Below, in pieces: positions 36,718 through 42,035 of a stretch of 64,000 nucleotides of DNA (the stretch's first letter is position 1; each line of letters starts with the position of its first letter). The notes beneath the pieces are model-generated. The model searched no databases, was not told the DNA's origin, and saw nothing but the letters and a program-made list of their open reading frames with translations. The position numbers were made by a program, and so were the translations under genes. The DNA is from Cenococcum geophilum (Eukaryota), in assembly GCA_050273025.1 (NCBI GenBank), contig CP158635.1:21762001-21826000 (forward strand). Reading direction: 5' to 3'.

Positions 36718-36788
36718 TCAACATAACCCCCCCGGTGGGCAGCAACCACCGAACCCACTCTCAGTCGACCCTTTAGCACAGCATAGTC
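36718..36788 (-). pseudogene. Displaced 3' end of Cys-rich gene A (..GLC-CAKGSTESGFGGCCPPGGLC*)
   Basis: In frame with gene A once the hAT and one TSD copy are removed; near-identical to the C-terminus of gene B. Confidence 0.92.
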
Positions 36789-39700
36789 CAGTGATCTGCT
36801 TGGACTGGACTGGACTGGATTTAGGCTCAAATCCAGTCCACTCTGGTTCTATCGCGATTTGGCTCTAGGAGCGCCATACAATCCATATACTATTTATAGT
36901 AAGTCTTAGCATCCTTTGGTGTTGCAGTAGGAAGCTGTGCAGACTATTAAATTCGGCCCAAATTGTTTATATTACTCCTTATATATTACTCCTTAAAGGC
37001 CTTAAACGTCTTAAATACGTCCTTATCGTTGCCCTCATCCTTATTATCGCCCCCACCCTTACCGCCAGCACGCTCTATTATCGCCAGAACCTCCTCATCA
37101 TCCTCCTCCGTATCCTCTTCCTCTACCTAGGCAGCGGCGGCGGCAGCCACATCCGCAGCTTGGCGCTTCTTAATGTACTCCCTGAGCTGCTCCGGTGTAG
37201 GGTTATATAGAGGTGACGGCTAAGGCTCTCCTTCTACTGATTTAACGCCCTTATTATTAAATATATTACTTCTTAGGGGCCCGTAGCTATGGCGAAGCCA
37301 CTTATTTGCCTTAATTATATCCATCTTTAGGCGCAAGCGTCGGTCCTTAAGGAGTATCTTATAACTGCTAAATAGGCGTTCGCATTTATTGCTTATAGGC
37401 GGAGGAGCGAGTACGTTAAGGGCAAAACGGGCGAGGTCGGGTTAACTGTAATAGAGCCTTTGCCAATAGTTAATTACATTAAAATCTTTATTATTGGCGA
37501 CTTTAAGAGGGCCCTCTTTTAGATACTTATCTAAAGCACTATCCTTTTTTACTGCGGAGGTTTGGTGGGTATATTTAATGCGCTTATAATTGCGAGTAGA
37601 GGTATAGTCCTTTTCCTTTTATAGCTTCTTAATAGGATAAATTAATAGATCTTAAGGCTATAATCCAAAGCTCTTACTTTTATAGTCTTTAAATATATCC
37701 TAAACCTTCTTTTTAACCTTATTAATCTAGGCCTTCTTATTCTTATCCGACCCCTATTTTTAGTAAAACTATTCCATCTTAAGCGTCGGATTTATTATAA
37801 TGGCGGCGTAGTAGGCAGGTGTCTCATTAGCCTTCTTAAAGTACTTCTTACACTTCTCCTATATAGCGCTCGCGCAGCCAGATAGTAGCTTGTAGTTTTA
37901 ATTATTAAGTTAACGTAGAGCCGCGAGCTTAAGGAACCAATCTTTAGTAGTATAGAGTTCATTAATAAGCCAATCTAGCGTCTGGAAATGATTAGCAAGG
38001 CCTATACAATTACCCTCTACTATAATAGTTGCCTTATAAAAAGATTCTAGGTGCGTATAAAGGTACTTAAGCTCTTTCTATTAGTGGGGCTTAAGGTGGT
38101 CCTCCTTAGTAAGAGGCTTTAAGTTAGTAGATGGAACGTAGTTATTAGAAGTCCGTGCCACCTCGTGTACAGTGCCACCTCTCGCATACCCTTTTCCCAT
38201 ACAAAATCGCAAATTTCTACCCTTTATAAAATAGCAACCCCTAGGGCTATTATTATAAAAATTTAAATATAGTATATTTAAAGTCCTAAATATATATCTA
38301 TATATTTATTTTATTATAATTTAATATTAATAAGTAGTTATATAGCTTTAAAAAATAAAAACTTTAAAAAAAGTTAAAATTTCTTTTAAAATTTCTATAA
38401 TAAAATAACTACTATAGCTATTAGTATAAAATTTTAAATATAGTATATTTAAGTAATAAAGTATAATATAAAGCTATAATTTAGTAGTATATTTTATAAG
38501 TAAACTATCTATTTAAGTAAACTATTTACTTTATTTTTACTAAAACTATAAAGTAATATCTTAATAATGGCTTAATAATAATTTCTAAAAATTTGTAATT
38601 AGACTTTCATATACTATTATATTACCCTATAAAAATTTAGAAGTAATATATATTATAGTTTTAAAGATACTATATTTTAGCCTATAAATATAAGCTAAAT
38701 TACTTAATCTTAATAACTACTATATACTTTACTCTTATATTTCTATAGAGTAATATAATAGTATAGGAAAACCTAATTATAAAAATTTAAAGTTTATTAT
38801 TAAGCCGTTATTAAGATATTACTTTATAGTTTTTATAAAAATTAAGTATATAGTTTACTTAAATAAACGGTTTATTTATAAAATATACTACTAAATTATA
38901 GCTTTATATTATACTTTATTACTTAAATATACTATATTTAAATTTTTATACTAATAGCTATAGTAGTTATTTTATTATAGAAATTTTAAAAGAAATTTTA
39001 ACTTTTTTTAAAGTTTTTATTTTTTAAAGCTATATAACTACTTATTAATATTAAATTATAATAAAATAAATATATAGATATATATTTAGGACTTTAAATA
39101 TACTATATTTAAATTTTTATAATAATAGCCCTAGGGGTTGCTATTTTATAAAGGGTAGAAATTTGCGATTTTGTATAGGAAAAGGGTGTGCGAGAGGTGG
39201 CACTGTGCATAAGGTGGTACGGACTTCTATAGAACCGAGTTATGCGTTTACGGTAATTTAGAAACCAAGTAATTGCTATAAAGAGCGAGTTCTAGCGAGT
39301 TTAATTATTTTAAATAAGCTAGTAAATTATTAGTATCGCTTTTAGTAGAGTAGAAGATTGCAACTATAAGTAAGTCTTGCGACCGTAAAGGCAGCTAAAT
39401 ACGGTAGAACTAAATCCTAATAATCTAATTGGTCCGCTAACGGACTGGGTGGCGAATATTACCACTTTTAAAAATATTACTTACCTCTAAGCAGTTATAT
39501 TTTGCTAGATCCCCTCTAATTTTAATACTCTTAAAGAATCTATACCTTTAGGGAGTTATTTAAATATACTAGATAAGATTATAAAGTAATTTATGGACCC
39601 CTGCTTCTTCCAAAGCTCCTAAATCCTCTTAAAGTCTATCTTACGGTACGCAGAGGCCATTTCCTTGCAAATCTTCTTAGCGTCCTTTCTAATTATAAAG

Positions 39701-41340
39701 GCTTACGTATAGAGGTTAATAATATAGCCAAAGCAGCGTAGCTAATAAGCTTTTTATTTTTTTGCTAATATCTTTAGGTATAGAACTCAAAGTACCGCAT
39801 TAACGCACGTATTATTTAACTCTGTATTATTACCTATAAAATAGCTAACATTGCCTTTAAATCCATACTCCTTAATCAGCTTTAGTAGAATGGCCGTTAT
39901 ATTCTTACCGGAGTGTTTACTAATAACCTTATAAAGCCCTAGAACTACGTGCCGTTGCCTTCTATATTGGTTAATAAAATAACTAATAATATTAAGAATT
40001 GCGTAGGAGTTTGGCAATGTTTATAAATTAAAGGATATAGATATAGAGCTATGAGCAGAGGCCAGCTCCTTCTTTAGGTTATCCTTCTTCTGCTTAAACT
40101 CTACTATAACCTAACCCCAGATTATCTTTCTAGCTTTTAGTAGGAATTTTAAAAGAGCCGGATAGAGGTAATAGAGAAGGCTTTAGAAGTACTCGTTTTT
40201 AAACTAGAAGAAGGTAATATAATAGCAGATAATCCACCTAATTAACAGCTGCTTAAACGCCTTAAAGTTTAACCTCTGCTTAAGCACCCACTGCTTAGGA
40301 TAGTCCTTAATTATTAGCTGGTTAGAGTTACTTAGTTTGGGAGGCTTAAGGAAGCTAGTATATTGGTTTATCTGGTAATCGTTAATAAGGTAATCTAAAG
40401 TAGTAGTATATCCTAATAAGATTATTATGAGCTCCTGCTAACGCCTCGCCCTCTTATAGATGTAGCAGTAGTAGTATACCTTCTTTCTATCGCCAACCGC
40501 GCCCTTAAGCTGAACGTCCTCCCCCTATTTCCATATTGGTGACGTATAAGGCTTAGTGTTTTTAACGCCAAGCATAAGAGACTTGCACCGGATATACTGC
40601 CTACCGCTATATTTAAACTTGTCACGGAAGTAGGCACGAGCTGGAATACAATGTACTAAACAGGGTAGTAATTGAAGAAGGCTACGTACGCGTAACTATG
40701 CGTGGTTGATACAAAGACATTTGGATGCAGAAACAGAACAGGTCAGGGGTTGTAGGGGAACGTGCGTAGGTGTCTCGGGACGAACGTGAGCACGGGTCAA
40801 GAACGTCAAAACGCGCAGAGACGTGAGAACGTGTGAGTCCCGTGACAAAACTCCTCTACCTCCAGGCGGCCTTTAGCTGCAGAGTTAATATATTCTAGGG
40901 TAAGAATAACGTCGTTAAACGGGGGTGTAGCTAAGTAATTAGGCAAGAAGCGCGCAATACTAAATTGATTCGTCGCTGGTGGGCGAGTTTATTTAGCGGC
41001 CATGGTGAAACAAAACACCAAATTAATGAGTAGTATACGCAGTAGGAGTGACAGGAGGGTAACTCCTTAATTCTACGGCAAAATTCTACGGGCAATTGAC
41101 CGTCTTTTGAGACGGTGTAATACTACAAAAGTCACTGATTGGCCGCCACCACCTGCACTGACTCCTCAGCGTCCTGTCCTCATCAGCCTCACGTCTGAAT
41201 AAGGAACGGAACTGGAGCGCCAGGAGCCTCCACAAGCCTAGATCCAGTCCAGTCCACCAATAAAATCAAGGGATCCAGCTCCAGAAGTTTAGGCGATCCA
41301 TATGGCGCTCCAAGATAGCTCCAGTCCAAGTAGATCACTG
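36789..41340 (-). mobile_element. hAT DNA transposon (Restless/Tfo1-like), RIP-degenerate transposase
   Basis: TIRs cagtgatctgcttggactgga / tccagtccaagtagatcactg; 8-bp TSD gcatagtc (36781-36788, 41341-41348). Minus-strand motifs CFGYIINL, RWNS and dimerisation domain LARFALNVLAPPPISNKCERLFS. Confidence 0.95.
38148..39227. mobile_element. 1080-bp foldback (palindromic) element, TA TSD, nested in the hAT transposase
   Basis: gaagtccgtgccacc... / ...ggtggtacggacttc; the arms pair to a centre near 38688. Removing the element plus one TA restores the host frame (TRFY-NNYVPS). Confidence 0.92.
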
Positions 41341-42035
41341 GCATAGTCCCTTGTCGCTATTCACGCAGTGGGGAGTAGTCTTTGAGCAACAGATTTCGCC
41401 ACACGTTGAGTCGTATGGACAATAGAAACCACCAATGCATTGTCCCGAGGGCTTACAAGACTCAGTAATACAGTGTAACGGTTGTACCAGACGATATAGG
41501 GGCGTCTCATTGTTCGGCCCGCATGTGCCTGGGTCAATCATCTTTTGACTGTAACTCCAGCCGCTGGGGACCGCGCATGCCCACACCTCATCCACAGGTG
41601 TGATAAGGTTATATAAGGGAGCGGTGCCATGTATTGCGCACTTGCTATTGTAGCCCCAAAAGTCATATGTCATGTCCTTAGCGGGCATACAGGCCTGCAT
41701 TCCGTCCCTGGGTATGCGCAGGAGGTATTCATTGTGGTAGCCGGAGGAACATTTGTTGGGCGCCTGACGGACCTCGACAGGTACCATGCAAGGATGATTT
41801 CTACACCACCATCTGCCATCCCAGCCACCTATTGGAGGGATATCTGATCTGGTGCATTTGTTAGTGGGGGCATTTTTAGATGGGAGGGGGAAGCTTACTC
41901 GCATTCAATACAGACACTTTCGCTGGTGACGTTGGGGATCCCCGTCGGGGAGATTGGATTACTGCTCTGGGGCTGACCGGAGGTAGAACTGATAAAGATG
42001 AGGGAGGTACCCATGATGCTCCAGGAGAGATGCAT
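41335..42035 (-). CDS. Secreted Cys-rich protein A (exons 42035-41899, 41848-41335; 216 aa), C-terminally truncated by the hAT
   Basis: Signal-peptide-like MHLSWSIMGTSLIFISSTSG. A 50-nt GT..ctaac..AG intron joins the frames. The stop codon is supplied by the TIR (cag tga). Confidence 0.85.

Follow-up and report, generated by a model that had tools for sequence, protein, structure and literature searches.

A polymorphic hAT insertion as the probable cause of a truncated, transcribed cysteine-rich gene in Cenococcum geophilum

Introduction

When a gene model ends within a few bases of a transposon, does it end where the native gene ended, or where the transposon happened to supply a stop codon? 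A stretch of 64,000 nucleotides from the fungus Cenococcum geophilum, an important forest-tree symbiont, raises exactly this question (GenBank assembly GCA_050273025.1, contig CP158635.1, positions 21,762,001 to 21,826,000 of the forward strand; this whole stretch is called the window here, and all coordinates refer to it). In the window a small cysteine-rich gene, gene A, annotated as K441DRAFT_151744, abuts a 4552-bp element with the features of a hAT transposon, and what looks like the missing end of the gene lies beyond the element. An earlier note, made from the letters of the window alone, had proposed that the element splits gene A. The analysis reported here leads us to the same conclusion, with a probability that we put at about 85%: a hAT insertion, polymorphic among isolates and represented by a copy killed by repeat-induced point mutation (RIP), truncates a gene that is still transcribed.

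Gene A ends inside the transposon, and its tail lies beyond it

As annotated, gene A occupies positions 41335-42208 of the minus strand, and its three exons (42184-42208, 41899-42124 and 41335-41848) translate exactly into the 254-residue database protein P0082. The reading frame ends ...DKGLCQ*, with the TGA stop (41335-41337) sitting inside the terminal repeat of the hAT element; the Gln codon and the stop (41335-41340, minus strand, ...KGLCQ*) are in fact the first six bases of that repeat. Because the end of the element begins with CAG TGA and the target-site duplication ends on a codon boundary, the frame gains a single Gln and then stops. On the far side of the element the minus strand (36718-36795) reads ITGLC, followed by CAKGSTESGFGGCCPPGGLC and a stop. 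This stranded end of the gene (36718-36780, minus strand) comprises 20 codons, four of them for cysteine, and a TGA stop, and it aligns with the C-termini of the related proteins P0004 and P0005. The codon phase of the duplication is the same in both pieces of the gene, so that with just one copy of the repeat the two would read as one frame.

The element between the two pieces has the complete outline of a transposon. It extends from 36789 to 41340 and is flanked by an 8-bp direct repeat, GCATAGTC, whose left (36781-36788) and right (41341-41348) copies agree in 8/8 bases; the chance of eight like bases at two fixed places is 1.5e-5. Its terminal inverted repeats, at the 3' end adjoining the stranded tail (36789-36809) and at the 5' end adjoining gene A (41320-41340), match at 20 of 21 positions, and a further subterminal 22-nt inverted pair lies at 36806-36827 and 41235-41256. 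A transposase remnant is found on the minus strand (37133-38143), which we translated with X in place of stop codons before the Pfam search. In this read-through translation the hAT C-terminal dimerisation domain (Dimer_Tnp_hAT, PF05699) was recognised at 38.9 bits (E 7.6e-10), above the cut-off of 21.4 bits; the match corresponds to residues 204-279 of P0006 and to a coding remnant at 37307-37534. Two adjacent minus-strand open fragments taken alone gave weak dimerisation matches of 18.1 and 15.6 bits, and the hAT-like RNase-H fold reached 23.8 bits in the same RIP-damaged read-through, under its cut-off of 27 bits. The N-terminal 593-codon read-through of the damaged element matched no Pfam family at E <= 0.1. 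The 8-bp duplication, the short terminal repeats and the dimerisation domain together place the element in the hAT superfamily. No second hAT copy was found by blastn elsewhere in the 64-kb window.

Up to this point the earlier note was borne out in full: it had described the 4552-bp hAT with its duplication GCATAGTC, the stop codon taken from the terminal repeat, and the 20 missing codons with their four cysteines intact on the far side.

All relatives continue past the break

If the 20 stranded codons belong to gene A, uninterrupted relatives should carry them. All nine relatives that reach the position of the break run past it with a four-cysteine tail of the pattern CC...CC...C: P0004 (76% identical), P0005 (46%), P0008, P0075 to P0079, and gene B of the window itself (P0020/P0084). 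The forms that end at the break are those of the window allele only (P0003, P0082 and P0083), so that homologues ending at KGLC, which the earlier note had named as an outcome that would speak against it, were not among the relatives. P0004 has 17 of the 20 residues in common with the stranded tail.

Gene B lies head-to-head with gene A on the plus strand (44151-44793). Its two exons (44151-44256 and 44324-44793) reproduce P0084, a protein of 191 amino acids with a clear signal peptide; a 174-residue call of the same gene has 30 cysteines. In tblastn, gene B and the stranded tail are identical at 15 of 20 residues (75%, E 1e-6), and over the last 47 residues of gene A the identity is 60%. What gene B has in common with gene A is the C-terminal disulfide-rich module alone, which in gene B is unbroken. 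Since the two genes share nothing but that module, it appears to be shuffled between neighbouring genes; used alone as a search query, the module found just P0004 itself and gene B.

The truncated allele is transcribed, spliced and recorded as a complete gene

In the RNA sequencing run X8, one spliced contig (record 20; 1312 nt, depth 26.3) follows gene A with 0 mismatches. Both introns (42125-42183 and 41849-41898), each bounded by GT..AG on the minus strand, are removed from it, and it reaches position 41313, which is 28 nt in from the edge of the repeat and beyond the stop codon. Since this contig is spliced and enters the repeat, the truncated allele is both transcribed and spliced. The same run shows no depth over 36000-36662 and, as far as seen, the stranded tail, 4.55 kb downstream, is untranscribed.

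Two in-frame starts are available to the gene: the ATG at 42208 gives 254 amino acids once the upstream intron is removed, and that at 42036 gives 216. The RNA contig also continues for more than 700 nt upstream of the 216-residue start, with 11 upstream ATGs (42209-42800, minus strand), and this upstream stretch is either a long leader or two merged transcripts. Both starts of gene A are candidates, and with them its secretion is uncertain.

The databases hold three proteins that correspond to the truncated form, of 209 (P0083), 216 (P0003) and 254 residues (P0082), and all three end KGLCQ. The longest carries the NCBI name 'uncharacterized protein K441DRAFT_151744 [Cenococcum geophilum 1.58]', and P0003 and P0083 are shorter calls of the same gene. 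Annotators have indeed taken the truncated gene for a complete one, as the earlier note had expected; the complete gene of 216 residues that it foresaw does exist as P0003, and is one of the three sizes on record. The GenBank/RefSeq entry K441DRAFT_151744 and the automatic 216- and 209-residue calls describe transposon-truncated products and not the native protein, and the present case corrects the entry.

An uninterrupted site in at least one other isolate

Four sequencing runs were aligned to positions 36000-42600 at 90% likeness, with a bridging limit of 31 letters. An empty-site joint, 36781->41342, was present in one contig of the DNA run X5 (depth 4.5) and in one contig of the DNA run X11 (depth 8.31). 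It skips 4560 bases, that is the 4552 of the element plus 8, and its placement is ambiguous by exactly 8. Thus the look for the empty site in other isolates that the earlier note had advised gave the expected joint. X11 has, in addition, a 1083-nt contig of gene A, with 6 differences in 1077 positions, whose alignment ends exactly at 41341 and which carries six more letters that do not fit the repeat; in this run 0.24 of the sampled words occur, which is roughly what the flanks make up. The joint, the departure of the contig at 41341 and the flank-sized share of words together indicate that X11 has no element at this site. The insertion is polymorphic, the site being uninterrupted in at least one other isolate. 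X5 has about half of the sampled exact words in common with the window and 1 difference in 1290 on the gene side. Besides X8, nine RNA runs with 0.21-0.25 of the sampled words were left out of the evidence.

The element has been mutated by RIP, the gene has not

RIP was judged by an excess of TpA, depletion of CpA/TpG, a positive composite index and transition-type differences from sister copies, and the interior of the hAT shows the marks of a RIP-mutated repeat. The composite index is 0.88-1.14 in the interior and -0.66 in gene A, in keeping with the contrast drawn in the earlier note, and the TpA/ApT ratio of the interior is 1.44-1.69. The first 112 bp at the 3' end of the element have an index of -0.68. 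The transposase remnant has 15 in-frame stops within 337 codons. Among the places where the sequenced contigs differ from the whole stretch 36000-42600, transitions account for 102/103 in X8, 289/309 in X5 and 401/421 in X11, and the listed differing places in the three runs fall nearly all within the element. Because the window copy is full of RIP-made stop codons and hosts two nested elements, it is unable to move on its own.

Other, differing copies of the hAT show up in both the DNA and the RNA runs. Sister copies are transcribed in X8, with contigs at depths of 2510 and 189, and these contigs have fewer A/T-ward changes than the window copy. One sister-copy RNA contig skips 62 nt at window positions 37616-37678, where a one-base shift gives GT..AG on the minus strand. 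This skip may be a transposase intron, but its length misfits the single frame that holds both Pfam matches.

Proposed history and alternatives

In the history that we favour, a hAT would have inserted in the last exon of the cysteine-rich gene A, 20 codons ahead of the natural stop, duplicating 8 bp of its target. The reading frame would thereby have gained one Gln and a stop, and the C-terminal disulfide-rich module would have been deprived of its last 20 residues, among them four conserved cysteines. The truncated allele would have stayed transcribed and spliced, its transcript entering the transposon, and the shortened protein would keep its N-terminal triple-repeat domain and be without the full disulfide module, its function probably lost or changed.

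Several observations weigh against parts of this history. The shorter side of the joint contigs measures 32 letters only, just over the bridging limit, and a short contig from a P0004-like paralogue could mimic the joint at 90% likeness; nor is any independent contig shown across the left junction, between tail and repeat. In X5 a 3232-nt contig starts with 30 nt of the repeat and then runs into gene A, so this run shows the filled form as well as the empty one. The raw RNA run X21 gave no gene A reads, with 87 reads placed among 9.29 million records (~12% of the run), which is no evidence of silence. Finally, the truncated protein retains 18 cysteines, an even number, together with its whole N-terminal domain, and that its function is lost is something that we infer only. 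The points about the joint could be taken to mean that the empty-site contigs come from a paralogue or a divergent lineage and that the insertion is fixed in the species, which the sharing of 17 tail residues with P0004 and the two forms in X5 would also suit. We regard this as unlikely: the long gene A contig of X11, 99.4% identical, leaves the window exactly at the edge of the element, the word share of that run is about that of the flanks, the depth of its joint (8.31) is near the flank depths of 7.3-8.2, and P0004 is found on just 2 contigs in the collection vs 26 for P0082. An error of assembly would be easy to suspect in a region so rich in repeats, but the right junction occurs independently in the X8 RNA contig, in the X5 DNA contig and in three proteins from other contigs, and duplication and inverted repeats make up a complete transposon signature, so that an artefact is extremely improbable. 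The two forms in X5 could reflect a mixture of nuclei or of samples, an excision, or a paralogue. That a single mycelium holds filled and empty sites, either through precise in-trans excision of the RIP-dead hAT by its transcribed sister copies or through coexisting nuclei with different alleles in a putatively asexual symbiont, strikes us as a long shot; if true, the transposon would act on a secreted cysteine-rich protein as a switch, either reversible or dosage-like.

A truncation by a polymorphic insertion thus stays our preferred reading, and what has to be weighed within it is its age. The earlier note called the insertion recent, and this has partial support. In its favour are the polymorphic site and the perfect duplication, yet the copy is heavily RIP-mutated and hosts two nested elements, and the intact 63-nt tail says little, being weak evidence of youth because the window and the X11 flanks differ by just ~0.6%. 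We give an even chance to an insertion that is not recent, in which an intact hAT would have landed in gene A, at least one RIP-active sexual cycle would then have killed the transposase in place, and the small elements would have nested later; mutation in place after insertion requires such a cycle. The many stops and high index of the interior are in favour of this course, as are the other hAT copies that are without the 1082-bp foldback described below, and X5, which shares about half of the sampled exact words, so that the mutated state predates the split between the window strain and X5. The perfect duplication speaks against it, and so does the want of RIP leakage into the gene (-0.66) or the first 112 bp of the element (-0.68). 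That same lack of leakage speaks for another course, in which a copy already dead and carrying its nested elements would have been moved in trans, possibly recently, by a functional transposase from its own family. The nearly intact terminal and subterminal repeats and the abundant sister-copy transcripts in X8, with their fewer A/T-ward changes, agree with such a mobilisation, but no intact transposase is seen within the window, and we hold this course to be tentative.

The protein and the effector question

Pfam searches with gene A, its tail, gene B, P0004, P0005 and P0008 returned no family. The gene A protein is small (209-254 residues, below 300) and cysteine-rich (18 Cys) and has no known domain. 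Its N-terminal domain (window 41338-41850, minus strand) is a triple repeat of ~45 residues with two cysteines each. In a profile search of 1.84 billion representatives, 68 proteins reached E <= 0.001, and for 22 the value was E <= 1e-10 or better. Most of the matches cover just the N-terminal part; all are to unnamed proteins of bacteria and fungi (P0009-P0074), including hypothetical proteins of the actinobacterium Salinactinospora qingdaonensis and of Colletotrichum higginsianum. Among the matches the repeat is also fused to subtilase or to FG-GAP repeats.

An AlphaFold2 model of the uninterrupted P0004, built from 43 sequences, has a mean predicted local distance difference test score (pLDDT) of 81.4, with values above 90 in the N-terminal domain and of 68-87 over residues 161-207; an earlier prediction from 3 sequences (pLDDT 34) was discarded. 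With this model Foldseek found 0 matches in the PDB at E <= 0.001 (best E 3.1), and a structural re-check of its rows gave 0/65 chains with Z >= 2. A wide structural search, which hardly probed the N-terminal domain, reached Z >= 2 for 5 of 48161 chains, with a best value of 3.1. From the ESM Atlas came no usable match, and Clostrillin, met in a PDB sequence search with the 43-sequence profile (E 0.53), was dismissed as chance. According to the model the N-terminal domain may be an unsolved extracellular fold; we do not claim a new one.

For the C-terminal module, the likeness is to zebrafish granulin AaE (PDB 6cku), onto which residues 161-207 of the P0004 model fit with Z 3.1 and a root-mean-square deviation of 2.4 A over 42 residues at 31% identity. 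The two have in common a richness in paired Cys-Cys, whereas the score is far below the level of common descent. No family of Pfam matched even at E <= 10, and the granulin family PF00396 gave no match for P0004, P0005 or P0008 at E <= 10 and none for P0003 or P0020 at E <= 1. A granulin-type stacked-hairpin disulfide knot is thus a weak lead for this module. The break takes off the last 20 of its 47 residues, a loss that would be expected to spoil it.

Small size, richness in cysteine, a place at the edge of a RIP-mutated block, a signal-peptide paralogue nearby and transcription are among the common criteria for effector candidates. Gene A has this profile and can on these features be called, at most, a candidate effector. 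For the 254-residue start no signal peptide was seen, as judged by hydrophobicity, and for the 216-residue start the 10-residue hydrophobic maximum is 1.93, compared with 2.3-3.1 in five relatives that have obvious signal peptides. The number 151744 had 0 occurrences in the text and 10 of 11 supplementary files of the secretome paper (PMC5816826) and none in 12 of the 16 supplements to the genome paper (PMC5023957), in searches by ID number only; within those files, a listing of the gene in the predicted secretome of the species or under symbiosis induction was therefore not found by this kind of search.

The earlier note had placed the truncation among the known routes by which a recognised effector is lost or altered. 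The words 'recognised effector' were not borne out: the gene has no Pfam family, its signal peptide is uncertain, and its ID is missing from the secretome files searched. We lean slightly towards the opposite view, that gene A is not a host-directed effector and encodes a binding protein that is secreted or associated with the wall and belongs to a wider family found in bacteria and fungi, so that its truncation would be of little consequence for symbiosis. The reach of the N-terminal repeat into actinobacterial, Colletotrichum, subtilase and FG-GAP proteins points that way, as does the missing ID. Against it stand the small, cysteine-rich and transcribed product, and the position of gene A on the margin of a 36-kb AT-rich block mutated by RIP, beside a paralogue with a signal peptide.

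Nested elements and surroundings

The two elements nested in the hAT differ in kind. One is a foldback of ~1082 bp (38146-39229), with two 541-nt arms that are 92% complementary, a GC fraction of 0.19 and TA on both flanks. Copies of the hAT without it are seen as the joint 38145->39228, which skips 1082 bases and is ambiguous by 2, in two contigs of X5 and one of X11, and as the joint 38146->39231 in the RNA run X8. The other, of 228 bp (40620-40847), carries the 8-nt terminal inverted repeat TGTCACGG and is bordered by AAACT on either side. The summed contig depth in the bin 40641-40861 is 2369-12602 (2369-2774 in DNA and 12602 in RNA) vs 6-26 on gene A, and the edges of the element, 40620 and 40847, coincide exactly with loose contig ends that have many differing flanks. 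It resembles a miniature inverted-repeat transposable element of very high copy number and seems to be widely co-transcribed. As a known RNA gene it was ruled out, no Rfam family having matched it; over 36000-42600 Rfam gave just one chance match, to a long non-coding RNA, at 17.9 bits against a cut-off of 50.

Gene A lies at one edge of the RIP-mutated block, within which GC-rich minisatellite arrays make GC islands. The arrays are at 3272-3865, 4032-4764, 10196-10472, 10552-11854, 23443-23689 and 24088-25282, with 49 and 98 copies of 12-nt units, 37 of a 20-nt unit, 10.7 of a 26-nt unit (100% matches) and 34 of a 38-nt unit. Downstream of gene B, an open frame with Pfam DUF6540 (E 1.1e-11) is found at 45707-46213 on the plus strand.

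Comparison with known cases and significance

The truncation of such genes by transposons is well known in plant pathogens, and specialists will not be surprised by one more.

Among described cases, the nearest is that of Fusarium oxysporum f. sp. lycopersici, in which the hAT element Hormin truncates AVR1 (Inami et al. 2012, PMC3428301). The two cases have in common a hAT with short terminal repeats starting with CAG and an 8-bp duplication, an insertion that hits a small gene of the secreted type in its last exon, a shortened chimeric product (175 vs 242 amino acids in AVR1) with transcription kept, and an insertion that is polymorphic between isolates. They differ in that Hormin, as described there, is a 759-bp non-autonomous miniature, whereas the element in gene A is full-length (4.55 kb), killed by RIP and host to two nested elements, and in that gene A gains just one foreign residue and loses just 20. 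Moreover, for AVR1 an avirulence function in a crop pathogen is proven, whereas gene A belongs to a tree-root mutualist and has no known function. Gene A is a clean, polymorphic and transcribed case of a known type of event.

For Cenococcum geophilum itself, hundreds of insertion sites of hAT elements (hAT-Restless and hAT-Ac) are reported to vary among 15 further strains, with 94-95% of transposons affected by RIP and some transposons expressed (PMC12910237). That work concerns the same species, its strain-variable hAT insertions and its genome-wide RIP; it gives genome-wide counts, whereas the present case is described at the level of a single allele with a stop codon supplied by the repeat. 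The strings '151744' and 'truncat' have 0 occurrences each in its main text.

Gene A thus gives a concrete allele for an important forest-tree symbiont whose strain-variable transposon insertions were hitherto on record as genome-wide counts. Being transcribed, polymorphic and scorable by PCR, this allele is usable to ask whether such insertions alter symbiosis-related proteins.

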